Positions 3,366 to 64,000 of a stretch of 64,000 nt of DNA are shown one piece after another; positions within the stretch are counted from its first letter, which is position 1; the number at the start of each line of letters is the position of its first letter. The DNA is from Octopus vulgaris (Eukaryota). The position numbers were made by a program, and so were the translations under genes. The notes under the pieces are model-generated. The model had not been told where the DNA came from. It was given only the letters and a program-made list of their open reading frames with translations, and did no database searches. The stretch covers positions 20,274,001-20,338,000 of the forward strand of contig OX597828.1 of NCBI GenBank assembly GCA_951406725.2, read 5' to 3'.

Positions 3366-3952
3366 AGATTTTTTAATTTGAGAGCACTGAAAAAAAACTT
3401 AAGCATACTTATCTGACCAGGCGACATCAAACAATCTATGTCCAGCGAACAGTACTTCTGAATTCAAGCAGACGAATGAGATATCGTATTCCTCTTCATT
3501 TACCCACGTGTGCCAGCGAGTAAAATTCTACAGAATACTGCCGATTACTATCAGGGTGAGAATTATATTGTCAATAATAATAAAGGGTAAAATTAATTAA
3601 TTAATTAATAATTTAAAAAATATTTGAATTCGGAAGTACTGGTCGTTGGACATACATTGTCTGATGTCGACTGGTCAGATAAGTATGTTTAATTGTTTTT
3701 CAGTGCTCTCAAATGAAAGTCTTCAATAATTGTACTGAAGGGACAATGAGAGAGTAGAATTATGATTTTACATTTTCACATCTCTCTAACTCCGAAACGC
3801 GTATACAGCTAATCAAAGCCGGGTGGATTATTATTTTTTTCTCTTTACCTACGTAAGTTGTTGAGCATTGCTGCCTGGGAGATTTTCTTATGGTAGTGAA
3901 AAAATTGTAGTTTTAACTGCTATTTCTAAATTTCGGTATGTGTGTGAAGCAA

Positions 3953-3957
<5 letters not shown>
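3365..3957 (+). mobile_element. Non-coding fold-back module with HHR motif (Penelope pLTR/retrozyme-like)
   Basis: Inverted arms at 3365-3467 and 3624-3723. HHR motif at 3731-3807. Spacer and 3' end resemble the 62918-64000 element. Ends in (TA)n. Confidence 0.7.
3731..3807 (+). ncRNA. Minimal type I hammerhead ribozyme motif (degenerate)
   Basis: Stem I tgta/taca, core CTGAAG(G), stem II gga..tcc with inner agagag/ctctct, then GAAAC-GC-GTA with palindromic ACGCGT. A9 is missing or substituted. Confidence 0.6.
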
Positions 3958-10130: not shown

Positions 10131-10780
10131 GTTAGTTAGTTAGTTAGTTAGTTAATTTGGCTCAAAAGCAAATAGCAAGGCCATGTAGGGGGACATGGAG
10201 TTAAGTACAGGGTGGTGTTCATGTAAAGAGTTCAGGCCACTTGAGGTCCAGGGAGGCTTTGAACAAAGCGGTCGTCGGCATCTTCACCATCTCGTCTGGC
10301 AGCTTGTTCCACGGATCCTCAACCCGGACGGAGAAAGCTCCTCTCCTTCGATTGAGATGAAATCGTCGCAGGTAGAGCTTTTCGGAATGACCCCGCAGCC
10401 GACGCTCTGGAGCAGGAGTGAAGAACAGCTCTTTCGAGAGGTTACACTTTCCGCTTATAATGTTGTGGGCGAGAATGAGATCACCACGGTGGCGGCGTTT
10501 TTCAAGAGAATAAAGGTCGAGCGTCCTCAGCCTTTCTTCGTAGGACAAATTTTTGAGACCATGAACCATGCGGGTAGCCAGCTTCTGCACTCTTTCGAGA
10601 TGCTGTATGTCTTTGAGGAGATAAGGAGAAGAGGCTTGAATCCCATACTCCAATATGGGTCTCACCAGCGTGACATAGAGTGGTAGGAATATGGCTGCTG
10701 TGAGCATTCCGAATAACCGTCGAATCAAGAACAGAATTCCGCGTGCTTTGTTGGCAGCATGGACGCACTGGGCCGAAGCA
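10131..10780 (-). mobile_element. CR1/L2-group LINE 3' end (ORF2 C-terminus), 5'-truncated, with (TAAC)n tail
   Basis: ORF 10219-10851 contains LYVTLVRPILEYG, LERVQKLATRMV, LSYEERLRTLDLYSLEKRRHRGDLI and FSVRV..WNKLP, typical of the post-RT region. Confidence 0.9.
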
Positions 10781-12019
10781 TGGGTGAGAGAAATAAAATC
10801 AAAGGTTTCGAAATAATGGATACTTCTTTCGACATACTGAAAACGAAACACGTCAAGATTGGCTACACGTTCTAGTGAATTAAAATTTGAAGCATCAGAC
10901 CACAGGATTAACTAGAAAAATCGTTGAAAGATCAAAAGCTTACTAAAATGAGAGCAAAAGGTGAGGTTCGTGCGTAGCAGAGGAAAGAAGCATCTTCAAG
11001 CTTCTTCACGATCAAGACGCTTACTTTACCACAAGATCAGATACATTCGAGAAATGGAGACATTATAAACAGTACTTGTTATGCACTAGAGAACAACCAT
11101 TCAGCGGATTACAACTATACAAATGCACCCCGTTTGAAATTGCTTCCCTTTAAACATTCATCTCAGTAGCTTGTTTTCTCTTGTGCCTTTCCACCTGCAT
11201 CCACTCTTATTTCATGCTTTCATCTAACACATATCTCTCTCCCTTATCACTTTTCTGATTTTCATTGATGTTGTAGTAAATTCACTTAAACCCCCATAGT
11301 AAATTTGTCATTACTTTATTCTAAAACGTGTAACTTCGTTTTCCCAAAATCTGTCAAGAAAAGAAAAACACCTGGCAAGTAGATATAAAATGTATACATA
11401 TGTAATTTATTTGGCCAGCCATAGCCACAGGATCGGCACTTATTTTGCTGACGCTAAGACACACACACACACATATATATACATAAACACACACACGCAC
11501 ACACACACACGTATATTTATGTGCAGTAGTTACATTATTTAAAATGTATATCATTAAACATTATTTACAATCTTAAGATCTCTAAACGACTAAAAAAATA
11601 AATTTATATGAAAATTATTCACGATTTGAGAATCTCTCTATAACGGAGTCGAAAATGGCTACCTATTTCATCTTGTGGGATTTGCTAGCTAATGTGACTC
11701 AAATTATGTCGTAGACACAAGTCCATAACCCAATGTAACACAAGCAAAAGTTCTCCGTTTTGTAGACCAACTCGATATACCAACGCAGTTGTTCATAATG
11801 CACAAACAAGCAGGCCACTGCTTTCCTCTTCTGATTAATGTATTAATAAATTAATTTAGAGAGATAAGAGCATAACGACAATTTCAGCGAAATTGATTTG
11901 TGGTTCGATTCGAGTTCCATGCAGAGAATTAACAAATATTGATCACAATAACTATAATGTTCCGTAAATTATATTAAACCTTATATAGAGGCTTATATAT
12001 ATATCGACACTTATATATG

Positions 12020-17816: not shown

Positions 17817-19786
17817 TGGTGACTCTGCACATTTTTCCTCACAAGGAATCCTTATCAAAAGTTTTGGATTCTGGAGTACTCACTGCATGGACTACGACTC
17901 TGTACAAAATCCCACGTGCTATCTTCCATCTCTTTCTGTTGGCATGGATGCCATACGTCCTTCTAACGTTTTCAGTCCACTAGTTCAAGTCGACACCAGG
18001 TATGCTTTCTTCGTCGTTTGAAATTCTCCTCAGGAGAGATCACACGTATTTTATTTATACTCAGGTACGACTTCGCGTCCCTTTTTCATCCTTACTTTCG
18101 TCTCACGTTCTCTGTAGAAGACGCCATCCTGGTTGCTCGCTACCGCTTGTGGAACTTTGTTTCCCACCACACTTTTTGGATTGGTTTTGATCGGCTCGCG
18201 TTCCTCCTGCACATGGGTACCACACATTTTTCTTTCGGAAGATGAGTCACACATCACTACCCCCACTATCACGGTGATCCTCGTATGTATTTCGCTCAAC
18301 TCAAGTCTTATTTCATGGCGAACAACAATCCAATCATCCATTGTAATTAGTGGCATTCCTTCTACACTCGCACTCTCTACAAAGGACCTCATCCTGGAAC
18401 ATGTCATTGATTGTGATGGCCTCCGCCCACTTCCTGCGAAAGTGGAATCAATTCAGCAGCTCTCACCACCAAGTTCATTGCGACAGCTCCGCCATTTTTC
18501 CTAGGGCTGATTAACAGTTGTTTCCCTTTCTCCTGTCGAGGTACGCGTTTTTCATACGGTAAAATCAGAACTTGCATAACTTTCTCATCTTACCATTCTG
18601 TCCCAGGAACAAAGCTTGCATTAGCAGTTGAAGCTTCAGATTTTACAGCAGGTGCAGTTTTGCAACAAGTTGTTCATAGACAAATGCAACCGTTGGCATT
18701 CTTCTTACTCCGTTTAAAAGTCACTGAAACGAGATATACTGCGTTTGGATGAGATCTTCTCGCTATTTACCTTGCTGTCAAGCACATTTACAACTTTCTA
18801 GTGGGGCGAGATTTCGTGATCTTCACTGACTATAAACCGTTGATTTCGCCCTTCACTCAAAGTCAGACAAGTACTCGCCAAGAGAGAATACCCACCTGGA
18901 TTTTATATCGCAATTTACGAGCGACATCCGTCATGTCTCAGGATCTGAAAATATCCCACCTGACGCATTATTTAGACCGCCTGTTTCGTCGTTAATCCCT
19001 GATGTGATAGAGTTTGTCATGTTAGCTTCAGACCAACCGCCTCTTCATTCAATTGACACCTTTTCTGCGTACTCGCACTGTCAATTCAAATTCTTGCCTG
19101 TATCTTCAACAAATGGAAATATTCTCTGCGACGTCTTTACAGGTGCAGCGATACCACTGGTTTCTAGCAGTCACCGTCGACGAGTGTTCGACGCTCTACA
19201 TTCTTTATCCCATGAAGGTATTGCGGCCTCGGTCAGGCTTATTACTGCTCGTTTCTTCTGGCCCGATATGCGCCGGCACATAAACGCTTGGGCTCGTTCC
19301 TGTCTTCAGTGTCAACATTCCAAAGTCCACCAACATATTCGTATTCCATTGAGGAAATTCGACCAACCTGACACACGTTTCCGCCATATTCACACCGACC
19401 TAGTTCGTCCTTGGCCCAGCAGTTGCGAATACCCTTATTTTCTTACCTGCATTGATCGATTCTCTAGTTGGCCTGAGGCCATCCATTTAGTCGACATTTC
19501 TGCCGAATCGGTAGCTTGCACTTTAATCTCAGGATGGATACCTCACTTTGGTGCTCCTTCAAGAATCACTACCGACCGTGGTCGGTAGTTTGAGTCTCAT
19601 CATTTTCGTGAAATGTCACGCCTATTGGCATACCACAAGTTACCACCCAGATTTAAACGGAATGGTCGAGCGGTTCTATCGTCGGTTGAAAGCAGCCCTT
19701 CGTGCGTCACCGGATCTGCAAAAATGGGCCGAATATCTTCTTATCGTTCTATTCAGTTGCCGATCCGCCGATCCTCTCTCTCAATA
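17817..19786 (+). pseudogene. Degenerate Ty3/Gypsy gag-pol relic (RT end, RNase H, integrase)
   Basis: PBS-like tggtgact at 17817. Motifs LEHVIDCDGLRPLPAKVESI..LRQLRHF, ASDFTAGAVLQQ..PLAFF and [10 protein letters not shown]. Integrase [19 protein letters not shown] and ITTDRG. Many stops and frameshifts. Confidence 0.9.
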
Positions 19787-27169: not shown

Positions 27170-27792
27170 TGGGATATGATAAGTATACTGAGCTTTGTAT
27201 ATTTTACCCCAGTGTCATTTTGATGGCCTGCACAAGTACCCTGATGCAATACCATACAGTGGCTATCATAGCTTCTGATTGGAAGTGTTAACATGTGCAT
27301 TTTTTTTTTGTCTTGGTATAAAAGCTGGGCTACAGCAAATATTCTGCTTAATATAACAGATTTGCTTGTCAGTTTTTTGATCTTGACCAGTTGAGCATCT
27401 CCCTTGGTGGATGAGGATATGTGCATCTCTGATCACAAGCAGAAGTAGTGGGGGAGCATCATAGCCATGTGTTAAGAGGAATTCTGTGGGATTTGAATAA
27501 TTCACCTCTGGGAACATGGATTTTCCTTAAACAAACCTTATTCAGGGACCTTTTGAGCAGGATGGCTTATTCAGCCTGAAAAGAATTGTAACTGGGCCCC
27601 ACCTTCAAGCTCATGCGCTGTTTATCTTGATATGAGATCACCATGTCGCGCACATATGATTGTGATGCTCGTGCCTAGTGCACCCTTATCAGAAAGATAG
27701 TCATGATAGGCATATTGAGCTTCGTACCCCAGTGTCACTTTGATGGCATGCACACACACTCACTCAATAACAACAACAACAACCACAATAAC

Positions 27793-27855
<63 letters not shown>
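27170..27855 (+). mobile_element. Family E (ATT/TAA-associated ~540-bp element) with (AAT)n tail, preceded by a partial copy
   Basis: Reverse complement of 28709-29252 and 43779-44329. Ends cactcactca-(AAC/AAT)n. Segment 27197-27234 duplicates its 3' end. Upstream 27040-27075 translates KIVVLGTAHLL, an R4/Dong-like C-terminus. Confidence 0.8.
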
Positions 27856-27856
<1 letters not shown>

Positions 27857-28662
27857 TTTTAAAGGGATTGACGTAAGTTCTCACAAAGGTAAGTAGACAA
27901 TACAAAGAGCGCTAGCGGTTTTATTGGTTCAACGATATTTCGACAGCTAGACTGTCTTTGCCGAGTTCAAAATGAAAAAGAGATACATAGAAATTTAAAA
28001 TTATAGAAATTCAAATTCAAAATCTGAACGAGGCAACCAGCATTCTCACGTTGATGGAATGACACCATCAGTCTTCAAATTTCAAGTTAAACAACTGGCA
28101 AAAAGAAAAAGAAAGGAGAAAAAAAGGAAAAGAAAAAGAAAAGGACAAAGAATAATGTTTAAGCAAATAGTTTTGTGTAAATATGATGAAATTCCCCTGT
28201 CATTTTATTCATCACTCCAGAGCGTGATGTTAATAACCTGCAAACATATTTCTCCTCATGCATTTTAAGGACTTAAAGTGTAGCTGATTCAGAAAATTTT
28301 CTGAGAATATGCACATTCAAGTCTTTTTTTCAAAATTGCAGCCGCTTGAAACGAAATATTCAGCAAGTTCTGTCGAAGCACTGTTATTGTGCCTGGCGTC
28401 ATATATGTGCCCATTGAATCTTTTGTTTAATTGAGCTGTGGTACAAGCAACATAAATGAAGTTGTGTTTCGTGCATTCTGCGGTGTACACCAACTGGGAA
28501 TCTCTACATATCCCACCTTCCGTGTAAATCATAACATTTTTGTTATGATTCCTGATGAAATCGACTCGACTCATCTTGTTGCACAATGAACAAGGCTTAC
28601 CTCTCTTGCGGTTGTTTTTTCAAGGTACAGCGTGCAGAAACTCCAATGTTTTCTTGGAGTCA
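27856..28662 (-). mobile_element. Penelope-like element 3' fragment (GIY-YIG remnant + 3' UTR)
   Basis: Minus strand GKPCSLCNKM...CRDSQLVYTAECTKHNFIYVACT..LNKRFNGH..ELAEYF is a GIY-YIG domain. Decayed HHR at 27930-27967. Confidence 0.8.
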
Positions 28663-28698
<36 letters not shown>

Positions 28699-28708
28699 TT
28701 TATTATTG

Positions 28709-29252
28709 AGTGAGAGAGCAGTTCATGCCATCAAAGTGACACTGGGGTAAAATATACGAAGCCCAATATACCCATCATGACTACCCGTCTGATAAGGGTA
28801 CACCAGGCACATGCATCACAACCATATGTGCGCGACATGGTGATCTCATATCAACATAACGGCGCATGACCTTGCAGGTGGGGCCCAGTTAGAATTTTCT
28901 TCAGGTCGAATAGCCCATCCCGCTCAAAAGGTCCCTGAATAAGGGTTGTTTAAGGATGTTGAAAGAACCACCCATGTTTCCAGAGGTGAATTATTCAAAC
29001 CCCAAAGAACCCTCTCAACACATGGCTATGATGCTCCCCAACTACTTCTGCTCGTTATCAGAGATGCACATATCGTCAGCCACTAAGGGACATGCTCAAC
29101 CGGTTAAGGTCAAACAACTGACAAGCACATCTGTGGTATTGAGCAGAATATTTGCTGTAGCCCATCTTTTATACAAAGACAAAACAATGTACATGATGAC
29201 ACTTCCAATCAGTTAAGATCAGAAGCCATGAGAGCCACTGCCTGGTACTGCA
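28709..29252 (-). mobile_element. Family E element flanked by (ATT)n
   Basis: Nearly identical to 43779-44329. Confidence 0.9.
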
Positions 29253-29307
29253 TTATTATTATTATTATTATTATCATCATCATCATCATCATCATCATCA
29301 TTATTAG

Positions 29308-36736: not shown

Positions 36737-36789
36737 ATATATATATATATAGGATTCAATAGCTAGAAACAAGAGCAATTACACCCCCA

Positions 36790-38814
36790 CCAAGGGAAAG
36801 AATAAAGCCTTAGACCGCTATTGTGACTAGATAACTAATTTCCCGTTTCAATTCATCAAGAAACAAAAACACAGCCCTAACTTTAACAAAAGAGAATGGA
36901 ACGACCTCATCAAACTAAGAGAAGACAAAGCAATAACAATTAAGGAGGCAGATAAGGGCAACGCGATAGTAGTAATGAATACAAACGATTATAAAAATTT
37001 AGTGCTATCCCTATTAAGAGATGAAACGTATTATGAAAGGGCCCAACAGTATAATCAGCAAAAAATAATGCACAACCTTAGGACATTAATCAACACATAC
37101 CGAGAAGGGCTCACGGACAAGGAGTATGAATACATCACCAACTTCAAATGCAAATCGAGTTTGTTCTACGGTATCCCTAAAGTACACAAAAGCCAAATAA
37201 TTAGAGAAACATGCAAAACATCTACCGATATACTCATCAAAATCCCTTCACCAAATGATCTTAAACTTAGACCGATAATAGCAGGGCCAGCATGTGAGAC
37301 TCACCGCCTCAGCAATTTCTTAGACACACTTCTTAAAACCTTTCCTAAAACACATCAAAAGCTACGTAAGAGACGATATAGATATGCTCAACCACCTCCC
37401 TAAAACAGTCAATGAGAAAACCCTTCTAGTATCATTCGACGTAGTTAATCTTTATTCTAACATCCCCTCACAACCTAGGAATAGAAGCGATCACCTTCTG
37501 GCTGAATAACTACTCCTTTGAACTCCCAACTCGCATAAACAAAGACCTTATAATAGAAGGACTTAGATTTATTTTAGAGAACAATTACTTTATTTTTGAC
37601 AATAATTTCTACAGACAAAGATCGGGAACAGCGATGGGCACGCGTACTGCACCATCTTTTGCCAACCTAGTGATGGGATACCTCGAGATAATACTCTACC
37701 AGATAACACTCGAGAAATTTGGAAACACCTTCTCCACCTATATCCAGAACAACTGGAAAAGATACCTCGATGACTGTTTCATCATCTGGGACAAAAGTAT
37801 AGAGAAACTTGAGGAATTTAAAATACTATTAAATGGAATAAATGATAATATACAATTCACGATGGATCATAACGAAGAAGAATTACCATTTTTAGACATC
37901 CTCATTAAGAAAACCGGCAACAAAATAGAGACAGATATCTACTATAAACCGACAGACTCCAAACAATACCTACCCTTTGATTCATGCCACCCACGACATG
38001 TTTAGCTAGAAGGATCTACACCATAATATCAGACACAAACACCCGACACACACGTCTCCAGGAACTTAGAACCACACTCACAAATAGAAACTATCCACAG
38101 CCCCTAATAGACAGTGCAATCCAAAGGGCACTCAAATTAAGTATAGAAGACCTGAGACAAACAAAACCAAAAAAGAAAGAACAATTAAAAACTCTTCCCT
38201 GCATCTCTACACACAACCCACTCAACAATGAGGCCTTCAGCACCATACTACAAAGCACAGCCCTACTAAAGGGAGACCCAAAGATGAACCGGATTCTCGA
38301 AACACACACCATCATTAAAAGTAAACGGCAACCAAAATCCTTGAAAAGGATTTTAACCCAAGCTAAACTCCACTCAACATCAACCACAAAACCAGCAGTT
38401 AGAAAATGTGGAAGGCCCAACTGCGGAATCTGTGTCATCTTGATAGAAGGTTCAGAATGTATACTAGAACAAGGCCATCAGTTCAACATTAGAGCAAACT
38501 TCACCTGCGCATCAGAAAACTTAATTTACGTCTTAACATGCGCAGGCTGCAATAGGCAGTATATAGGCCATACAAAAAATAGCTTACGTAACAGGATGGC
38601 GGTGCATAAATCACAAATTAGAAACCCTGAATACCGGAAAATACCGGTCAGCGGACACATAGATAGATGTGCTGGAAATGTAAATCCGAAATTTACAACT
38701 TACCCGCTTTATAAATTCAGTGACAGCGTAACCTTCACGCAACGCCAAAATAAAGAACTGTATTTCATCAAAAAATTTAGACCAAGTTTGAACACCCTGG
38801 GCCAGGAATATTAA
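36790..38814 (+). pseudogene. Penelope RT-GIY-YIG polyprotein, frameshifted
   Basis: Motifs IKEADKGNAIVVM, FYGIPKVHK, LRPIIAG, LVSFDVVNLYSNIP, GTAMGTRTAPSFANL, RYLDDCF, LPFLDILI, YYKPTD, CGRPNCGIC and NLIYVLTCAGCNRQYIGHT. At least 3 frameshifts. Confidence 0.93.
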
Positions 38815-39029
38815 AACAAAACATTGGTCCTCCGAAAAGGAGAAGCGAAATTCTACCACGGCCGCTGCCTTAAACAGTTACTCACACTTACAGAGATATG
38901 TCTTAGGGAAAGAAAAAATTCATAAAAAGATCTCTACGAGCAGATCTAATCCTGATTCGTCAAGAAACTGATGACGTATTACCTCAGTGGGCAAGCTATT
39001 GTCACCTTGCTTGGTCGGTTTCCACACAC

Positions 39030-39405
39030 GATACAGCTAAGGGTCAGACCCGATTCTGATTGGTCAAAACATTGATGACGTCTCGTTCTGCTGGACTAGC
39101 CACCTAACGGGATGATTGGTCAAAACATTGATGACGTCTCGTTCCGCTGGACTAGCCACCTAACAGGATACAGTCATGGGTCAGATCTAATACAGCTATA
39201 GGTCAGACCCGATTCTGATTGGTCAAAACATTGATGACGTCTCTTTCTGCTGGACTAGCCACCTAACGGGATGATTGGTCAAAACATTGATGACGTCCCG
39301 TTCTGCTGGACTAGCCACCTAGCGAGATGATTGGTCAAAACATTGATGACGTCTCGTTCCGCTGAACTAGCCACCTAACAGGATACAGTCATGGATCAGA
39401 TCTAA
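39030..39405 (+). repeat. 56-bp tandem repeat (5 copies) in the Penelope 3' UTR
   Basis: gattggtcaaaacattgatgacgtctcgttctgctggactagccacctaac starts at 39058, 39114, 39217, 39273 and 39329. Confidence 0.95.
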
Positions 39406-39870
39406 TTTCAATCCGTCAAAAACAAGGATGACGTATTTCTTCCGTGGCCAAACTGTCGTTCTGCTTGGTTGGTTTCCTAACAGGATATATTCGTTGAGAC
39501 TGAGTTTTGATTGGTTGGGAACTATATGACGTCAGTGAAAAATGCAAGTGAGACAGCTAAGCTGAGCTGATATAAACCAAATTCATCAAAACTATACGAA
39601 CAGACACCAACCAAAAATCATTACAGTTGCTCCCATTGGAACGCAAGGTAAAATCTAAAATGAATTTCTCACTTTTTCAAGAACATGAATTTTTTATATT
39701 TGACTCTATTGAATGCATATCATCACTATGAACTACTACATCATACTTTTTAAACATATAGCATGGACTCGCTTTACTATATATGAATTTTTTATGTTTG
39801 ACTCTATTGAATATTATATATGAAATTTTTTATATTTGATAGCATGAACTATCTTTTTTATATATAAATC

Positions 39871-39915
39871 TTTTTTGATAAGGTTCGTCATTTCAAGAAC
39901 CGAAACATGTTAAAT
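39871..39915 (+). ncRNA. Degenerate minimal hammerhead motif at the Penelope 3' end
   Basis: TTGATAA (2 changes from CTGATGA), stem II ggttc/gaacc, then GAAAC-AT-GTT with palindromic ACATGT. Confidence 0.6.
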
Positions 39916-39979
39916 AAATAATGTATATATAAAAATTAAAATTTGTCTAATATAGCAGCATTTTCAAACTTCATTTTTT

Positions 39980-40026
<47 letters not shown>

Positions 40027-46566: not shown

Positions 46567-49500
46567 GTTTCTTTATTGGCCACACAAGGCTGCACACAGA
46601 TGGGACAAGTTACAAGGTAGAGCTTTTCTTTTGGGGGATGAAGAAATCAAAAAAAAAAAAAAGGGGTGGCGTAGGTTTTCGATCAAGAGGGATCGTAAAA
46701 GGGAAGAAAAGAACAAAAAAAAGTAAATAAATGAATAAGATAAAAAATAAAAAGAAAAAAAAGAAAAATAAAGGAAAAGGAAAAGGAACAAGAGAAAAGA
46801 GAAATGAAAAAAGAAGAAAAAAAGGGGAAAAAAGTAGAAGAGGAAAAAAAAGAACGATCAATAAGAATCGTGTATCACAGTGTTATGATATATGGTTTAA
46901 AGGGGAAAGCAAGTAAGGTTTATCCGTGGGAAGAAAAGCCTACGAAAAAGACCACGGTAACCTTGGTCAATATTGTTATATGTTACCACATTTGTTTGCA
47001 AGTGGGTAACCCTCTGTTTTCAATTTCTGGGTTCATAGGATTATGCTCAAGGTGGCTTCGTCATTCATACGTGCCATCCTTGCTACATTCACCCATCTTT
47101 TTTTAAAACATTCGCTAGACAAAACTTGCCTCTCTACTCTCACTTTCCTTTTCAAGTGGTACTTGAAGAAGTTGATGAGAGATTGACCAGAGAGGAAAGT
47201 GTTTGTCTCCAATCCTTTCAGACGCATCCACCAGATACATTCTTTCGCCATAGCCACAAGGATTATGAAAATAGCTCTTCCTTCCCGTTTGAAGGAAGGA
47301 GGCGTGACAATAGTGACGATAGACTCAGCTGATAAACCGACTCGTCCCACACGTGACAGCAGTTGTTCGACATAAGCCCACAGGTCGGAAATTGTTGGAC
47401 ACTGTACGAGTGCGTGCAGAACGGTTTCGTCGCTCTGACCGCATCTCGGGCAGGTCGGCCCCGTGTTTCTCGAGCCGTGTCTGTAGAGCTTATCCCGAAC
47501 GGGTAGCGCTTCTCTGTAGCACTACCAGGCCAGGGATCTCTGGAAGTTGTCCATGGGCTCTGGCCCGAAAGTCGTCCTGAACAGGCAGGTCAGGTACTCC
47601 TCGTCGACGTCCAGGTTCGCCCCGAGCTCGTCGTCGTACCTCCCCTCCACTAATCCCCTATAGAATGCTTTGGTTGTGTTGAAGTCACCCAAGGTCGACC
47701 CAGGACGGCAGAGTTGCTTGAGAGCAACGCGACACTCGCGGTGCCATTCGCCCTTCCTCGGCCTCTTTTTGATCCACGACTGCAGTTCGGTCATGGAGAT
47801 GAGCTGCGGGAAAGCGTGCCTCACAAACGGCGACCACACCTGTTCACCGTCGTCTACATAGAGCCAGAGATGTCGCAGTCTCAGCGCGTGTCTGCGCATC
47901 ATCAACCACGGCATGCCCAGCCCTCCTTTTAACGGGTGTTGACAGCAAATGGATCGCCTGACCATCGGGTCGCATCCTTTCCACAAGAAGCGAAAGAGAA
48001 TGCGTTGTAGTTTGGTGATGGTAGGGTCGGGACAAGGTACGACGGTCAGGCGGTAGTAGATGATGGACGCGATGTACGTGTTCGCCACCTCCGCCCGACC
48101 TTTTAGGGACAGTTTCCTCTCGGCCCATTGCCGGGCGAGAGTGACCAACCTACTCGTTATCTCGTTCCAGTTCTTCTCCACTTGGAGGTCCGGACCAAAC
48201 CAGACCCCGAGCAACTCAACCGGGCCGTCGGTCCAGCGTCCCACGACGGAGGCGCGGGTGGACGGCATGGGCTTGCTTCTCCAGGTGCCTAGTAGCAAGC
48301 CCACTGACTTTTCCCGGTTGATTTTCGCTCCTGTCACCGCTTCGTAGTTTTTCAGTGTCTCGCCGACCTGCTCGATGTGCTCGTGGCTAGACACTATGAT
48401 GGTGACGTCGTCCGCATATGCAGACACGCTCGTCCCGCATCCCAGTTCTCGCGGGATGCCCCTCAAAGTTGCCAGCTTCCGCAATAATGGCTCGAGAGTC
48501 AATACGTATAGAAGCGACGAGAGGGGGCATCCCTGACGGACCGAACGTGCGATGTCGAAGGGTCTCGATAGATGTCCATTCACGCGAATTACCGAACGGA
48601 TGCCTCTGTACAAAGCGGCTATCCAGCCGCGGAAGACGGGACCGAAGCCAGCCGCTCTGAGGACCGTCTACAAGTACCGATGGTCTACCCTATCGAAAGC
48701 TTTCGATTGATCCAAATTGATCAGCGCCCCACCCATGCCAAGTTCGTTAACTACCCTGTCTATGATGTAGCGCATCAGGTGGAGGTTGTCATGGATGGTC
48801 CGGCCCGGCACGGCGCATGTTTGCGCCTTGTCGACCAGTTTCTCGATGACAAGCGCCAACCTCTTGGCTAGGACCTTGGCCAAAATTTTCAAGTCTGCAT
48901 TAAGCAGAGTGATGGGCCTAAAGTTATCTATTACATTTCCCTTGTTTAGATCTTTCTTCAGCAGTGTTACGGCTCCTCGGCTCACAAAACCAGGAATGCT
49001 CCCGTTTTGCTGCCAGTTGCAGTACACCGCCGCCAAGACATCTCCAAACAAGTCTGGCATACAATTGTAAAGCTCGTAGGGTAGACCATCCAAACCCGGT
49101 GATTTGTCCCACGAGCATTCTGCCATCGCGTCCTGCACTTCCGCCGCCGTGATGGCACCTTCGCAGCACCCTGCCTTTCTTGTCGAGAGTCGTGGTAGGC
49201 TATGTAGGTAGGCACTGAAGTCCACCCTACGTTCTTGCCCTCCACTCGTCCCGAACAGTCGGGCAAAATGCTGCTGAAAGGCCTCACACATTTTACTTGG
49301 CTCGAGCAATTCGCGCCCCTGTTCATCTACCAGGGACCGAATGGTGGCTTTGTTGCCCTGTTGCGCCTCTGCCACCCGGGCCTCTCTCGCGGCTCCAACA
49401 CCTTCGTTCCTTAGAGCACGCATCCTAGCTCTGACAGCACATCCTTCGTGTTTGGCATTGAAGTGTTGGTCGAGGGCCAACCTCGCCGCCAAAACGTCGG

Positions 49501-49851
49501 ATGCGATGCCGCTTCTAATTGCCTCTTCTAGCTTCTTAACTAGCTCACCCTCTACTCTCTTTCTATCTATGGCTAGTGCTTTGCTGTACCTAATCGCTTC
49601 TGCTTTTACTGCTCTCTTGAGGGCAAACCACCATTTGTTGTTGATGATGGCTCCCGTCAAAGCCCTCTTTACTAGTGTGCTAATCCGGTCCCTGAAAACC
49701 TGTCTCGATGGGAAAGACGCGTTTAGTTTCCAGTATCCGGGACCCTGCCTAAGTGTCTTACCTAAGTCTAGCGTACATGTCACAAGTTTGTGATCCGTGT
49801 AGCTGACTATGTGGAATTGTGGACATCCTATGCTATCTCTGTCTACTGTCC

Positions 49852-49856
<5 letters not shown>
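46565..49856 (-). mobile_element. Tx1/L1-clade LINE, 5'-truncated, inserted in (GATA)n
   Basis: ORF2 runs from the APE end (YTDHKLV, GPGYWKLN) through RT (KSPGLDGL, FRPITLLNADLKILAK, LDQSKAFDRV, RQGCPLS, YADD) to a CCHC finger (CPRC..ETVLHALVQC). 3' UTR 46565-47032. Confidence 0.93.
47033..49783 (-). pseudogene. Tx1-type ORF2 (RT + zf-RVT) with two in-frame stops
   Basis: ORFs 48668-49783, 47522-48613 and 47033-47350 share one frame and are separated only by single TAG codons. Confidence 0.9.
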
Positions 49857-49897
<41 letters not shown>

Positions 49898-49946
49898 TAG
49901 ATAGATAGACAGACAGATAATTTAGATAGATAGACAGACAGATAAT

Positions 49947-57302: not shown

Positions 57303-58515
57303 TGACATAATGGAAGTAAATAAATACTCTTTTAATTGTTAAAATTTATTTAAATCTGAAATAATACATTCAAATTATTTGTTAATTATTATAATGTGAA
57401 TATCTAATATCTAGTAGACGTGTCCTTTGCATTTTTCAGTGCAAGGACCTCTTAAGTATGCTGCTGATCTGATGAGGAATATTCTCTTAACGAATTTCAT
57501 GCCAAGTTTCATGCAGTAATCTCAAAGAATTTGTATTTGAGGACGCTTTCTTGTTCTTTTTACGAAATGTCCTGTCCATTATGCCCCAGACATTTTCAAT
57601 AGGGTTCACATTTGTTGATTGGCTTTGCCATGGAAGCTTTCTAATGCCTTTCTCTTTCAACTAATCTTGGGTTGTTTTAGCTGCATGACAAGGAGCTGCA
57701 TCTTCCAGAAATATGTATTCCTTATTCATGTTACCATCGGGGAAGATTGGAAGGAGTCCTTTCTGCAATATGGACACATATTTATCTGAGTTTATCTTTC
57801 CTTCATACTCCACTAGCTCTGATGGGCCACTGCTCCAAATTACACCCCAGACATCACAGAATAGCAACCGTGTTTTATTGTTGGCTGCAACATTTTCACA
57901 TCAATTTCTTGATCATAGAGTCTCCAGACCCTCAGTCGACCACTCTCAGAAAATATAGCAAATCTGGACTCATCAGAGAATATGACAGTGTCCCAAAATG
58001 CTAGTGACTTTTCCACCATCTCACTGGCCCAATCTTTTTTCCGCTTCATATTGGCTAGTTGAAGAAGTTACTTCCTTCTCGCTGCTCTGCCATAATCGCC
58101 AAGTTTGTGAAGATACCTGGCGGCTATACTGAGACTGACGAGGCTTAACGTCCACACATCTCTTAGCAAAGCGAAGGGTCCTGCTAGAGAGCGTTCGTCG
58201 ACCTGGACAAGGTGATGTGGACTCCTTCCCCTCTCTGGTGAATTGCACCCTCACTCTATTAACTGTAGAAAGTGGGATCCCAATGTTTTCTGCCATTTTA
58301 CGTCGACTAAGACCACCTTCAGATTGACCCAAAATACGGCCTGTTTGAAATTCGGACAGTTCTAAGGCTTATTTTGAACGTGGCATGATTAGACAGTCAT
58401 ATATGGAACCTGAAACATAAAATTGTCAATTATTAAAAATTATAAACCTTTTCAAGTGCAAATAAACATAAAACGATGTTCCATGGGGTGTCTATTTACT
58501 TCTGTCATGTCTGTG
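57300..58515 (-). mobile_element. Tc1-family transposon relic with TIRs
   Basis: TIRs actgacataatggaagtaaata / tatttacttctgtcatgtctgtg. Minus strand [39 protein letters not shown] and NPIENVW. Confidence 0.9.
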
Positions 58516-59245
58516 TACGTGTATACGACAAACTTCCAAACAATTTACCAAATTGACTCACAAGACACTGGTCAGCCCAGAGCTATAGTAGAAGACACTA
58601 ACGCAAGCTGCCACTCAATAAGACTGGACTAGCAGCCACGTGATAGCAAAGGGAGCTTCTTAACCACAAAACAATACTTAATTATATTAATTCACCATAT
58701 AACACAGTTTTTATCAAAGAGATTAGAACCCTTTTAGATATGGGACATATAGAAGACTTATGTGGATATTATGAACGGGACATAAGATTACTCACAAACA
58801 ATTAGAAATGCCCAAAACTTAGAAAATTTTATTAGAGATCATCAAAGAGAGAAAATTAAGATATTTTGGACACTTAATTAGGAAAAGTGGTTTCTAGAAA
58901 GATTGTTTATAGAAAGTAAAGGAAAAAGAAAAGAAAGAGTAATTTGAATGGTTTATTTCAAGAAATGGGCGTACTTGTTTTACAGTGAATACACACACAC
59001 GCGCGCATATATATATACATATATATATATATACTTATATGTATACATGCACATATATATGTATGTGTATGTATATATATATGTACATACATGTATGCAC
59101 GTATATGTGTGTATATCTCTATATAAATGTATCTGTCTATCTATCTATACACACATATATATATATATATATATGCACATATATCTATTTATCTATGTAT
59201 GTATATTTGTATACACCCACATACCATCCACAGTTATACAGACAC

Positions 59246-59303
<58 letters not shown>

Positions 59304-59377
59304 GTACAACTATAAGAGAGAATCCACTATGTGGACGCTCTTACGCTAGATATAGATCCGCAAATTATATATATATA

Positions 59378-59604
59378 CTTATTTCTTTATTACCCACAAG
59401 GGGCTAAACACAGAGGGGACAAACAAGGACAGACATAAGTATTAAGTCGATTACATTGACCCCAGTACGTAACTGGTACTTAATTTATCGACCCCCAAAG
59501 GATGAAAGGCAAAGTCGACCTCGGCGGAATTTGAACTCACAACGTAACGCAGACGAAATACCGCTAAGCATTTCGCCTGGCGTGCTAACGTTTCTGCCAG
59601 CTCG
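59378..59604 (-). mobile_element. SINE family A, well conserved
   Basis: Reverse complement of 30187-30416. Confidence 0.9.
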
Positions 59605-59813
59605 TGAGATTGAATAAGTATTTTGTATGTGTATATATATATGAAGATTTATGTTTTAGTGTATGTGCATGGTGTTTGTGTGTATGTGCATGTGTGTGTG
59701 CGTGTGTGTGTGTGTTTGTGTGTCTGCATGTACTTGCGTATGGTATGAGGACAGCACAAGGAACACCGATCTTTCGATCAATATTTTTCAAACAGCCTAG
59801 AGCGGTCGACATA

Positions 59814-60245
59814 TGACGACAATGACGATGATGATGATGATGATGATGACGACGACGACGATGATGATGATGCTGGTGGCGATTTCGACTGTGGTGGTGG
59901 TGGTGGTGGTGGTGGTAATTGATGATGACGATGACGATGAAAATGATGATGGTGGTGGGGGTGATTGTAGTGTTGTTGCTGCTGATGTTGCTGCTGCTGC
60001 TGCCGCCGCTGCTTTTTCTGCTGCTGCTGCTGATGATGATGATGATGAGGGAAATAGCAACGACGAGGATGATGATGATGTCGGTCACGACGACGACGAC
60101 GGCGATGATCTCAATAACAATAACGACGATGACGACGATGTAATTGCTGACGACGACGATGATGTCGATGACAATGTAGATAATGAAGAGGCCGTTGAGG
60201 AGGAGAAGGAGGAGGAGGAGGAGGGGAAGAAAGAAGGAGGAAAAA
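59814..60245. repeat. Compound trinucleotide tract (GAT/GAC/GGT/GCT/GAG)n
   Basis: Visible directly. Confidence 0.95.
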
Positions 60246-61114
60246 GAAATTGGTCATGGTGGCGACGACGAGAACTATGTAGGTGAGACTAAAATAAATA
60301 TTACTAGAAATACTTGAGTATTTTTTTTCTGTTCCCATAATTCTATTTGCTTCCATAACTTCATCATTTCTTCTTCGACAGTCTCTTAAATTCCTTCAAA
60401 GAATATTTTCTCACATAATTCCACAGAAACTTCAGTGAAATCAAATCAAATGAAATCAATAATTAAAGTCTTGTTTATTTAGTTATTTTATTTATGTATT
60501 TATATATTTATTTATTTGTTCTCCATGGTCAGAGAAACAGCAACGTTATTACACACGACTTACATATTAAGCATTTACAACCTCTTAATCGCCGACGAAA
60601 CTTCCAAGCAGATTATTGATCTACTAGAAATAGCAGCCAAACTTCCCACGAATCACAGTACCCTGGCTTAAGGGGATCAACACCTCGTAAATCGGATCAG
60701 AAAGAGACCTCGAGACCCACCGACACTATTCATCTTGAATAAAGCAGGAGTAAGCCAGAAATGGGGCCTGCATGATGCTATTGGCCCCTTTCTATGCAGT
60801 TGCGAATATTCATAAGCTTGTCGTAACCCTTTGCTTGTCCAGAGTATTTTCATAGCTTTGTCCTAAACGTCTATGTTCGTGTTCAAGCTTTTAGTTAGGC
60901 CGTTTCATACGATTTAAGTAAATATAAAGTTTTCGGTTCAGAAGTCTCAAGATACTTCAGTGATCGAAAAAATTAGGAATTTGTATCATATATGATGCAT
61001 AAATGCCAGAAAAATATATCCTGTGAATAAGAATTGGCATAGAGGACAGGCAAAGAGTTAAATGTATTATCCAATGAAACCATATAGTCTTCTTTGAGAA
61101 GCATTGCAGATGTA

Positions 61115-61760
61115 CGAAGTGGTATCAAAAAGCTCCAGGTCTATTCATGTTTAATAAAAAAAAACTGAACTTATTTACCCAAGTTTAAACATCATTTCAT
61201 TCGAAGTAGTCACCTTGCGCTGCAGTGCACCGGTTTGTGTTCTTGTCACTTGTGCGGAATCCGGCCTGGAAGCCGTTTTCTTTAAGCGGGTCGAGGACTT
61301 TCTACGATTCGTTTTGGATTTCGACAATGGCAAAGTTTGAGCTGCCTTTTCCTCTTGGAGAAGAGATGGAAGTCTGCAGGTGTTGAATTTGGCGAATAGG
61401 TGAGGAACTCACGACTGAGAAGATCTCGGTGACAGGGTGCATTGTCGCCGTGAAGAATATAATTCTTCGTACCCCCACAGATCCGGTCGCTTTCGCCAAT
61501 TGTCCTCCCTTAAACGCTCCAAATCGTAGCAGTAGAACTCTTGTTTGACGGTTTGGCCCTGGGAGACGTATTCTCGATGCACAATACTGCCGATGTCGAA
61601 AGCAAAAACGACGAGCATGCTCTTGATTGAAATGCAGCTCAGTCGTGCATCCTTTGGTTGCGGAGATGAAGGGCACTTCCATTGTGACAACTGTTTCTAC
61701 GTTTGCTGTCAGCTGTTGGTGCGCTCCAAAACTAGTCCGGGAACTTTTTGATAGGCCTCG
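61115..61760 (-). mobile_element. Internally deleted mariner element
   Basis: TA-cgaagtggtatcaaaaagctcc / ggaactttttgataggcctcg-TA. Minus strand KSMLVVFAFD..SIVHREYVSQGQTVKQEFY..LERLRE..RKRPDLW. Confidence 0.85.
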
Positions 61761-62289
61761 TAACAGTGTGGTAGCTTCTACTATGAGAGAGTCTTGTGGG
61801 ACAGCAGATACACGAAGGAATGCTGAGAATTATCTGGCTTTAAAGGTGTTGCGAAAGGCCTGGTTGGAGGTCGAAACTTCTGTGTAATTTTACAGGGCTT
61901 ACGACAAATGAAGGACCACTGCAATAGGTATGTGAATCAGGAGGGGAAATATGTTGTATAAAACCATAATAAACTGATCATCCTGTATTCTTTTATCTAA
62001 AGTCAGGAACGTTTCAATACCCACTCGTATTTCATTCGGGTTATCACAGAAATTATGTAGAATATTTTCAATATAGCGCACTCCTTTCACTCGCTGCCTA
62101 TCCAAAACATTTTCATAACGTTGTCTTAAACGTCCAACCTTATTTTCAGGCTTTCAGTTAAACGCTTCTTCCATATGTTTTGAGTAAATATAAGGCTTTC
62201 CTTAAATAAATTCCAAATGACTTCGGCAGTTGGAAAAAACTGGGGAATGTGTATCATATATGATGCATGGAAGTACTCGAAATATTTCT

Positions 62290-62490
62290 TAGGGTTTCGA
62301 ATTTTGCTACAAGAGCAGCAATTTTGGTGAAGGCGATGTGTCGATTACATCGACCCAAGTGTTTCACTGCTACTTAATTTATCGACACCGAAATGATGAA
62401 AGGCAAAGTCGAACTCGGCGGAATTTGAACCCAGAACATACCGCAAGGCATTTCGTCCAGTGTGCTAACGATTCTGCCAATTTGCCGCTA
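62290..62490 (-). mobile_element. SINE family A
   Basis: tacttaatttatcgac..gatgaaaggcaaagtcgaactcggcggaatttgaac..gtgctaacgattctgcca. Confidence 0.8.
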
Positions 62491-62639
62491 GGGTATCATG
62501 TCTTATACACATGTGGTATATTGGACAGACAAAGCGTTAAGATAATGAAAAGTGCTTCATGGCCCGCCAGAAACATCAGCCAACACTTGCAGAAACCATG
62601 CGCTAGTAGCTTAAAAAGACAGTGAAAAATACAAGAGCA

Positions 62640-62914
<275 letters not shown>

Positions 62915-63113
62915 TATAATATTAAGTAATTAAGGGTTTAGCAACGAATTGCCTCACCAACACACCAAATTTAGAAATAGCAGTCAAAGAGATATAGCTA
63001 TTCCTTCTACTAAAAGGGGGATCTCAGTAAAAACACAGCACTTAAAAGGCAAACACAGACAGGTAAGAAAGAAAGAATGAAATGACGGCAATCCATCATG
63101 CAATTTTAAGTTA

Positions 63114-63205
63114 CCTACGGACGTACGTTTCGAGATCAAGTTTTAGGATATCATAAGAATTAGAAAATTCTACTTTACCCAGACTTCTTCTCTCATCGGC
63201 GCAGG
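63114..63205 (-). ncRNA. Minimal type I hammerhead ribozyme motif (mirror copy)
   Basis: Reverse complement of 63709-63800. Confidence 0.7.
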
Positions 63206-63708
63206 ATACTACAATTGTGAATAATTGTATATTAAATTTTGAGATACTAGAATGCGTCATCTCAACTCAGTGTCAGAGCGAGCCAAAGCATGACCAGTAC
63301 CACGAAATTCAAAGTTTGAATGAAAGTTTGTGTCACCAGCCCCCTTCCACCCGCGTGTAGCCAAGACAAAATGCTGTGGTCATTTACTGGGATAAAATAT
63401 GGTTATCAGTAATAATAAAAGGGTGAAATTAATTAATTAGGGATAATTATCAATTACACCAAGTAGATTTCGGTATGTAAAAGCCCCATTCGAGGAAAAT
63501 TTAAGTAATACTAAGTAATTAAGGGTTTAGCAACGAATTGCCTTTTGTCTTGGCTACACGCGGGTGGAAGGGGGCTGGTGACACAAACTTTCATTCAAAC
63601 TTTGAATTTCGTGGTACTGGTCATGCTTTGGCTCGCTCTGACACTGAGTTGAGATGACGCATTCTAGTATCTCAAAATTTAATATACAATTATTCACAAT
63701 TGTAGTAT

Positions 63709-63800
63709 CCTGCGCCGATGAGAGAAGAAGTCTGGGTAAAGTAGAATTTTCTAATTCTTATGATATCCTAAAACTTGATCTCGAAACGTACGTCCGTAGG
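63709..63800 (+). ncRNA. Minimal type I hammerhead ribozyme motif
   Basis: Stem I cctgcg/cgtagg, core CCGATGA (U4 to C), stem II gaga/tctc with a ~53-nt loop, then GAAAC-GTAC-GTC. Predicted cleavage after 63794. Confidence 0.7.
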
Positions 63801-64000
63801 TAACTTAAAATTGCATGATGGATTGCCGTCATTTCATTCTTTCTTTCTTACCTGTCTGTGTTTGCCTTTTAAGTGCTGTGTTTTTACTGAGATCCCCCTT
63901 TTAGTAGAAGGAATAGCTATATCTCTTTGACTGCTATTTCTAAATTTGGTGTGTTGGTGAGGCAATTCGTTGCTAAACCCTTAATTACTTAGTATTACTT

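Follow-up and report, generated by a model that had tools for sequence, protein, structure and literature searches.

At the right edge of the 64,000-nt stretch of Octopus vulgaris DNA analyzed here (contig OX597828.1, positions 20,274,001 to 20,338,000; hereafter the window), a fold-back insertion interrupts a (TA)n tract (Table 1). Its inverted arms (62917-63374 and 63540-63997) are alike at 456 of 458 bases, both mismatches lying at the arm edges, and the inner 449 bases show no difference, which places the upper 95% bound of their divergence at 0.7%. A preliminary description of this DNA had proposed near-identical inverted arms of ~454 bp and a tandem period of 589 nt, and both proposals hold. 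The terminal repeat occurs twice, 589 nt apart, and positions 63960-64000 reproduce 63503-63543 in reverse complement without a mismatch over 41 bases; the right arm thus crosses the head-to-tail junction, which is present twice within the window. Read on the minus strand from 63543 to 62923, the left copy measures 621 nt, that is, one 589-nt unit followed by 32 nt that repeat the unit end (32 nt exact, or 37 of 38 when junction bases are counted). This copy terminates in (TA)n, where target and unit have 5 of 6 junction bases in common. The outer ends are asymmetric, with the right arm extending 9 bases or more beyond the end of the left arm, into unit sequence, at the window edge. The fold-back thus has unequal ends and a centre derived from the unit.

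Table 1. Features of the young insertion, its target and its older relative (positions within the window)
Feature	Position	Strand	Basis
SINE-like dispersed repeat, 5' part, hosting the insertion	62643..62799	+	9 other matches in the window
(TA)n target tract	62798..62919	.	sequence
Junction, 5 of 6 bases common to the TA-rich target and the unit continuation	62917..62922	-	sequence
One complete ORF-less 589-nt unit, 36.5% GC, strongly self-paired	62923..63511	-	period, frames, fold
32-nt overhang past unit length, in the size range of Penelope "tails"	63512..63543	-	repeat of 62923-62954
165-nt inter-arm region, unit sequence with no foreign spacer	63375..63539	-	bridged by contigs of other copies
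Right arm, 5'-truncated copy in opposite orientation, leaving the window via the head-to-tail junction	63540..64000	+	arm alignment
Type I hammerhead motif, left arm, predicted cleavage after 63120	63114..63205	-	descriptor
Type I hammerhead motif, right arm, U4C core, predicted cleavage after 63794	63709..63800	+	descriptor
53-nt helix II extension: 2x2 internal loop, then irregular hairpin	63726..63778	+	folding
Older relative, fold-back ending in (TA)n	3372..3957	.	likeness of arms and homology to unit
Decayed long-helix-II hammerhead of the relative	~3730-3807	+	relaxed motif scan

The left flank of the insertion has nine other matches in the window at 70-79% identity, and the three best of those reaching the insertion point continue into TA-rich tracts. 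The insertion therefore appears to sit in the internal microsatellite of a dispersed repeat. It had been described as lying in the (TA)n of a SINE: the TA tract and the dispersed repeat are indeed there, and the host is better called SINE-like only.

The older relative, close to the opposite end of the window, carries head-to-head arms that are 88-90% alike. Its alignment with the unit arm scores 130.5, against a maximum of 72.5 in 100 shuffles, and nhmmer gives E values of 1e-4 to 1e-3. Its right end meets (TA)n ~25 nt short of the end of the young copy, its minus segment crosses the arm/spacer point without an ORF (E 0.001), and its left arm stops ~12 nt before the ribozyme. The point of inversion differs between the relative's family and the young one. 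The relative's fold, taken alone, is not significant (z -1.6).

The relative bears on two other ways of explaining the arms. The family could be real and the perfect inversion at this locus an artefact of assembly or of a fold-back read, as the absence of any difference over 449 inner bases might suggest, the inversion junction (63540-63543) being known from the assembly alone. We regard this as very unlikely, given that the arm ends are unequal, that the 165-nt centre derives from the unit and that the relative is likewise arranged, its arms having diverged to 88-90% as those of an artefact would not. A MITE or a Foldback-type DNA transposon would also bring long terminal inverted repeats, an ORF-less body and a TA target; we give this reading next to no credence, because the outer ends are asymmetric (the right arm continuing into unit sequence), the inversion point is not the same in the two families and head-to-tail joints occur in reads.

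The unit itself has no coding capacity. Read head to tail, its longest stop-to-stop frames reach 52 and 67 codons, no RT/GIY-YIG ORF occurs in 62917-64000 or in the closed unit, and tblastn with two Penelope-like proteins found no match in it. Within the sequence seen (to 64000), it is accordingly not an autonomous Penelope-like element. With a GC content of 36.5%, it folds more stably than any of 100 dinucleotide shuffles (z -5.4). One could imagine a SINE-like repeat moved by an ordinary LINE and inverted by twin priming, with the hammerhead as a passenger or fossil, since other RT-bearing elements lie in the window, the hammerhead core is of the U4C type and its conservation is not significant (see below). 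This is extremely improbable in our estimation: the copy has neither a poly(A) tail nor a 3' end of LINE type, the window yielded no tRNA call, and a more-than-unit copy with a 32-nt overhang is a Penelope signature.

The type I hammerhead previously proposed for each arm is found by descriptor, with two matches in the 64 kb (both strands), one per arm, and none in 15 block shuffles. The two are a single sequence doubled by inversion and not independent features. Stem I comprises 6 bp, including one G.U, stem II 4 bp and stem III 2 bp within the 8-nt palindrome ACGTACGT; the core reads CCGATGA (U4C), which, by analogy, may make the ribozyme weak. Helix II spans 61 nt, bearing out the earlier remark on an unusually long stem II insertion, and its pairs reach probabilities of 0.97-0.98 when the unit is folded as a circle. 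In the same fold, stems I and II form with a probability of 0.93-0.99 and stem III with one of 0.00; a hand-built fold of the active monomer is ~4 kcal/mol less stable than the minimum, and the self-duplex of the palindrome has an energy of -9.8 kcal/mol. Stems I and II formed, stem III absent and a self-pairing palindrome would fit dimer-dependent type I cleavage.

The motif has no extra base between 9 and 10.1 and does not have min-HHR dimensions. Judged from the predicted pairing, its dimensions are those of the "canonical" metazoan type I and not of the minimal pLTR form; of the minimal-HHR framing given in the preliminary description, the palindromic helix III stands, whereas the helix lengths (6/4/2) are canonical. 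An Rfam search of 58000-64000 at E up to 1 gave 39 matches, none of them to a hammerhead; they fell on hairpins and repeats, involved microRNA or snoRNA models throughout and stayed below the gathering threshold in every case. With such a long helix II, families of this kind can be missed by short-loop descriptors and by Rfam.

In the relative, a relaxed motif scan points to a hammerhead with stem I TTGTA/TACAG, stem II GGA/TCC spanning 53 nt, the palindrome ACGCGT and a core that begins CTGA and has lost one base. The scan is weak alone (0-2 matches per shuffle, 6 in 10 shuffles), and this match was counted because it lies at the homologous place; three others (19962, 23349 and 43549) were set aside as chance. 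Between relative and unit, two double changes in stem I and two in stem II keep the pairing. In this comparison of two sequences, the relative is the strongest indication we have of past selection on the fold and of the antiquity of the long helix II.

The family is not confined to this locus. The stretch is present in 20 of the 24 listed runs (9 studies), with half its words or more in 17; no RNA run was listed among the holders, the RNA labels of runs X1 and X3 being tentative. Four runs were aligned, to 62923-63543 only and at a likeness threshold of 82%, so that copies less than 82% alike fall outside the comparison, including the estimate for U4 given below. Two DNA-type runs yielded 1,957 and 2,719 contigs that range from the 99+ to the <90% identity class and cover 30 of 30 bins. 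The aligned contigs are mostly short (31-130 nt; longest, 506), none spanning the whole stretch. The summed depth along the unit is uneven, the two DNA-type runs disagree near 63385-63426, and the depth gives no copy number.

These contigs allow us to weigh the possibility that the arms belong to a complete autonomous Penelope-like element continuing past the window, as its pseudo-LTR and 3' end, the 589-nt closure being a private deletion. Such an element could fit a right end that lies beyond the window and the frequent inversion and truncation of Penelope insertions described in PMC8557442, and a linked or low-copy ORF-bearing form could hide among short contigs or among the 4,700 records and 141 loose ends beyond those listed. 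Among 31 listed records, three bridge the arm/spacer point at 63375 with at least 31 bases on each side; two of the three are not identical to this locus, from which they depart by 16 and 4 letters, and one (record 7) continues over the unit boundary to the beginning of the unit. Joints of this kind, leading back to the beginning of the unit, occur in three of the four runs, two with a ~30-nt replaced stretch, although at 82% likeness such joints can arise from other repeats. In each of the two DNA-type runs, the share of contigs that leave the unit for unlike sequence is 0, although contigs this short make this a weak measure. Since copies that differ from this locus read through both the arm/spacer point and the unit boundary, since the distant family keeps its ORF-less continuity and since the unit gave no match to the two Penelope-like proteins, we consider a full element improbable, and the "pLTR end of a full Penelope" that had been offered as an alternative is disfavoured. 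Two consecutive same-strand units with complete ribozymes were seen neither in the window nor in the listed contigs. In one contig, a TA tract is joined at 63404, which gives a second 3' end position.

The preliminary description had left room for a CTGATGA core in the family at large. This is not what the copies show: no variant was called at 63198, so that U4 stays below 5% of the aligned depth in the two DNA-type runs and 5% is unreached in 4 of 4 runs. From these alignments, C4 would not be a private mutation of this copy, and the U4C core looks family-wide. The variant table holds 36 variable sites, and its G>A tallies (7 per DNA-type run) agree with the listed rows. Compensatory conservation of the stems among copies, which had been put forward as a test, gave a mixed answer: a common variant at 63202 turns the G.U of stem I into A-U (24% and 40% of depth in the two DNA-type runs), whereas another common variant, at 63114, breaks the outer stem I pair. 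Neither the ribozyme (3 variants in 92 nt, P = 0.21; range of P, 0.21-0.60), nor its 13 core nucleotides (0 variants, P = 0.46), nor the predicted fold (9 of 36 pair-breaking versus 11.7 expected, P = 0.17) is significantly avoided by variants.

Several subfamily variants were observed: both DNA-type runs have ~30 nt replaced across the unit boundary, in one of them a skip of 47 nt deletes half of the ribozyme core, and in run X1 the helix II extension has diverged. Metagenome scans with two patterns returned 0 matches each, and none of 12 loci from a viral scan was similar to the unit by blastn. In two viral contigs (L001 and L012; 601-665, -/+), a perfect CTGATGA core precedes a helix II of 4 bp and GAAAC; this may be a phage hammerhead, and its sequence is unrelated to the unit.

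A Penelope-like element is present in the window at ~36752-39983 (+), with an RT, a CX4CX2C linker and a GIY-YIG domain; it is 5' truncated and frameshifted, lies between TA tracts and, by its linker motif, would be of the Neptune/Nematis type. It shows that a TA-targeting class of helper exists in this genome. Its long 3' UTR contains internal tandem repeats (~39030-39400); inspection by eye also suggests a minimal hammerhead there, decayed and with a palindromic helix III (~39875-39912). As a partner of the unit it was rejected, its 3' UTR being unlike the unit, with scores no higher than those of shuffles. Cephalopod Naiad was likewise tried as a partner and is not supported: six exact 10- to 13-mers are absent from the Craig 2021 supplement (PMC8557442), and inspection by eye of octopus Naiad ends in one part of it showed no likeness. 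Supplement S1 of that study flags cephalopod Naiads as "HHR_half_core", and the widely spaced Naiad cores may be real long-helix hammerheads missed by short descriptors.

Elsewhere in the window, another ~590-bp repeat occurs as two inverted copies that are 83% alike (27244-27810 and 28663-29253), with (AAT)n/(ATT)n at the ends. Between them, at 27860-28660 (-), a decayed element end runs into (AAT)n and shows by eye a hammerhead-like helix II followed by GAAA near 27940-27970; this is possibly another truncated Penelope 3' end, and neither the hammerhead scans nor tblastn matched it. Fragments of an integrase-bearing LTR-type element (18050-19590, +) and of an RT-bearing LINE-type element (47033-49921, -) are also present, together with a probable LINE C-terminal piece without a Pfam match (10219-10911, -). 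An open frame of 175 codons, 1 kb away from the insertion (61302-61829, -), is probably due to chance; no homologue of it was found when longer proteins were searched.

Taken together, our data make it highly probable that the insertion is a young copy of a non-autonomous Penelope-like element that belongs with the non-LTR retrozymes, has a unit of 589 nt and is abundant. The initial view of a young, ORF-less, retrozyme-like or mini-Penelope element is thereby strengthened by the copies in reads, the absence of coding capacity and a second family of like build. The Penelope footprint is visible in the inverted, 5'-truncated copy at the head, found in both the young copy and the relative, in the 32-nt tail with its more-than-unit length and in the (TA)n target, seen at the young copy, the right end of the relative and one contig end; the last are few cases in a window where TA tracts are common. 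In the light of known insertions, the fold-back, the overhang and the TA target are ordinary Penelope features and not unusual ones.

A possible pathway would start with the transcription of a head-to-tail source locus into a more-than-unit RNA. The type I hammerhead may cut this RNA slowly, probably only as a dimer formed via the palindromic helix III, and the cleaved monomer may then be ligated to a circle. An autonomous Penelope-like RT/GIY-YIG protein would nick the (TA)n tract, and reverse transcription would begin inside the RNA, in an AT-rich stretch ~197 nt downstream of the ribozyme cut site, where the end of the copy is observed. Both target ends would be extended and the two cDNAs joined head to head, giving the fold-back structure seen here by a mechanism that we borrow from the anole element in vitro. 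The 3' end of the copy lies 197 nt downstream of the predicted cut site, and the left cDNA continues 424 nt beyond the cut. Since, at 621 nt, this cDNA is longer than the unit and crosses the cleavage site, its template was an uncut multimer or a ligated circle, two forms not distinguishable by sequence, and not a cleaved linear monomer. In the anole element, the start site is not homologous to the target, as far as the available text of PMC11167929 describes it, and the shared junction bases may therefore be chance in AT-rich DNA. Once inserted, this copy probably leads nowhere as far as cleavage is concerned: with one ribozyme on either strand, no dimer could form in cis, and a read-through RNA would form a 449-bp duplex.

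We also put forward, as a doubtful extension of this reading, that the unit belongs to an overlooked lineage of long-armed hammerhead retrozymes missed by standard searches, in which a dampened U4C core was fixed, the 53-nt extension acts as a protein- or RNA-gated switch and the Penelope RT, starting at variable AT-rich points, copies a ligated circle and goes beyond its cut site. If true, this would provide direct genomic evidence for circle-templated Penelope retrotransposition.

Comparison with known systems places the octopus unit between several of them. In the available text of Craig 2021 (PMC8557442), inverted 5'-truncated copies, 30- to 40-bp tails and a bias for (TA)n are ordinary for Penelope-like elements. 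The octopus copy shares with the EN+ members (Neptune, Naiad and Penelope/Poseidon), as described there, the inverted truncated copy, a tail of 30-40 nt and the (TA)n target, as well as a 3' end away from the ribozyme cut site and a template uncut at the ribozyme. It differs from them in having no RT/GIY-YIG ORF, and our comparisons tied its sequence to no particular autonomous family. Frangieh 2024 (PMC11167929), in the part available, reports that the anole Penelope protein cuts AT-rich DNA and extends both strands, that synthesis begins internally on the RNA, the tail being defined by two adjacent start sites, and that ribozyme cleavage is not needed for insertion in vitro. A wide spread with a U4C core would fit such cleavage-independent insertion.

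The min-HHR of Cervera 2014 (PMC4209133) has, in the sections available, a helix I of 4-5 bp, a helix II of 7-8 bp and an extra base between 9 and 10.1. The octopus motif resembles it in being of type I, in its G10.1-C11.1 pair, in the palindromic 15.2-16.2 region and in its likely dimer dependence, and the same paper also records motif pairs on opposite strands 100-700 bp apart. The octopus hammerhead departs from it by a helix I of 6 bp, a helix II of 4 bp, no extra base after A9 and a long extension in place of loop 2. Its core change is identical to that of a natural viroid U4C hammerhead, which Perreault 2011 (PMC3088659) describes, in the text available, as much slower in vitro and sufficient in vivo; whereas in the viroid U4C is a rare variant of an RNA replicon, in the octopus it is apparently the majority state of a genomic repeat family.

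The closest likeness is to non-LTR retrozymes. As characterized in the accessible parts of PMC7229834 and of Li, Clavereau and Pollet 2026 (10.64898/2026.07.22.740005), these are non-coding, have <45% GC, are self-paired and have a head-to-tail unit, as here, and they carry a type I hammerhead with canonical helix lengths and a palindromic loop 3, which the predicted fold of the octopus motif also displays. Li 2026 proposes that retrozymes are non-autonomous Penelope derivatives of 51-972 bp, a range that includes 589 nt; its 35 species comprise no mollusc in the text available, and it takes as its criterion two consecutive complete ribozymes in a tandem array. The octopus unit is likely a member of this group by fold, non-coding state and composition. 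Unlike the 170- to 400-nt circles of Cervera 2020 (PMC7229834), it measures 589 nt; its helix II spans 61 nt with a U4C core in the bulk of copies, features that distinguish it from the retrozymes described there; and instead of tandem arrays it is seen as a dispersed head-to-head insertion.

Our literature searches on octopus and cephalopod hammerheads, U4C and non-autonomous Penelope elements, which covered mainly open papers and left Repbase outside their scope, found no description of the family; it may already be catalogued as an unnamed Penelope repeat. No new mechanism is implied. The published retrozyme-Penelope case (Li 2026, in its available text) rests on co-occurrence and pLTR homology, to which the octopus copy adds the insertion footprint itself (inverted head, tail and TA target) on an ORF-less unit, in a copy where reverse transcription passed through the predicted ribozyme site. 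The family offers a natural test of whether such hammerheads are required, regulated or passengers. The link between retrozymes and Penelope is already in print; relative to the systems compared here, what is new is the long helix II together with a U4C core that looks family-wide.
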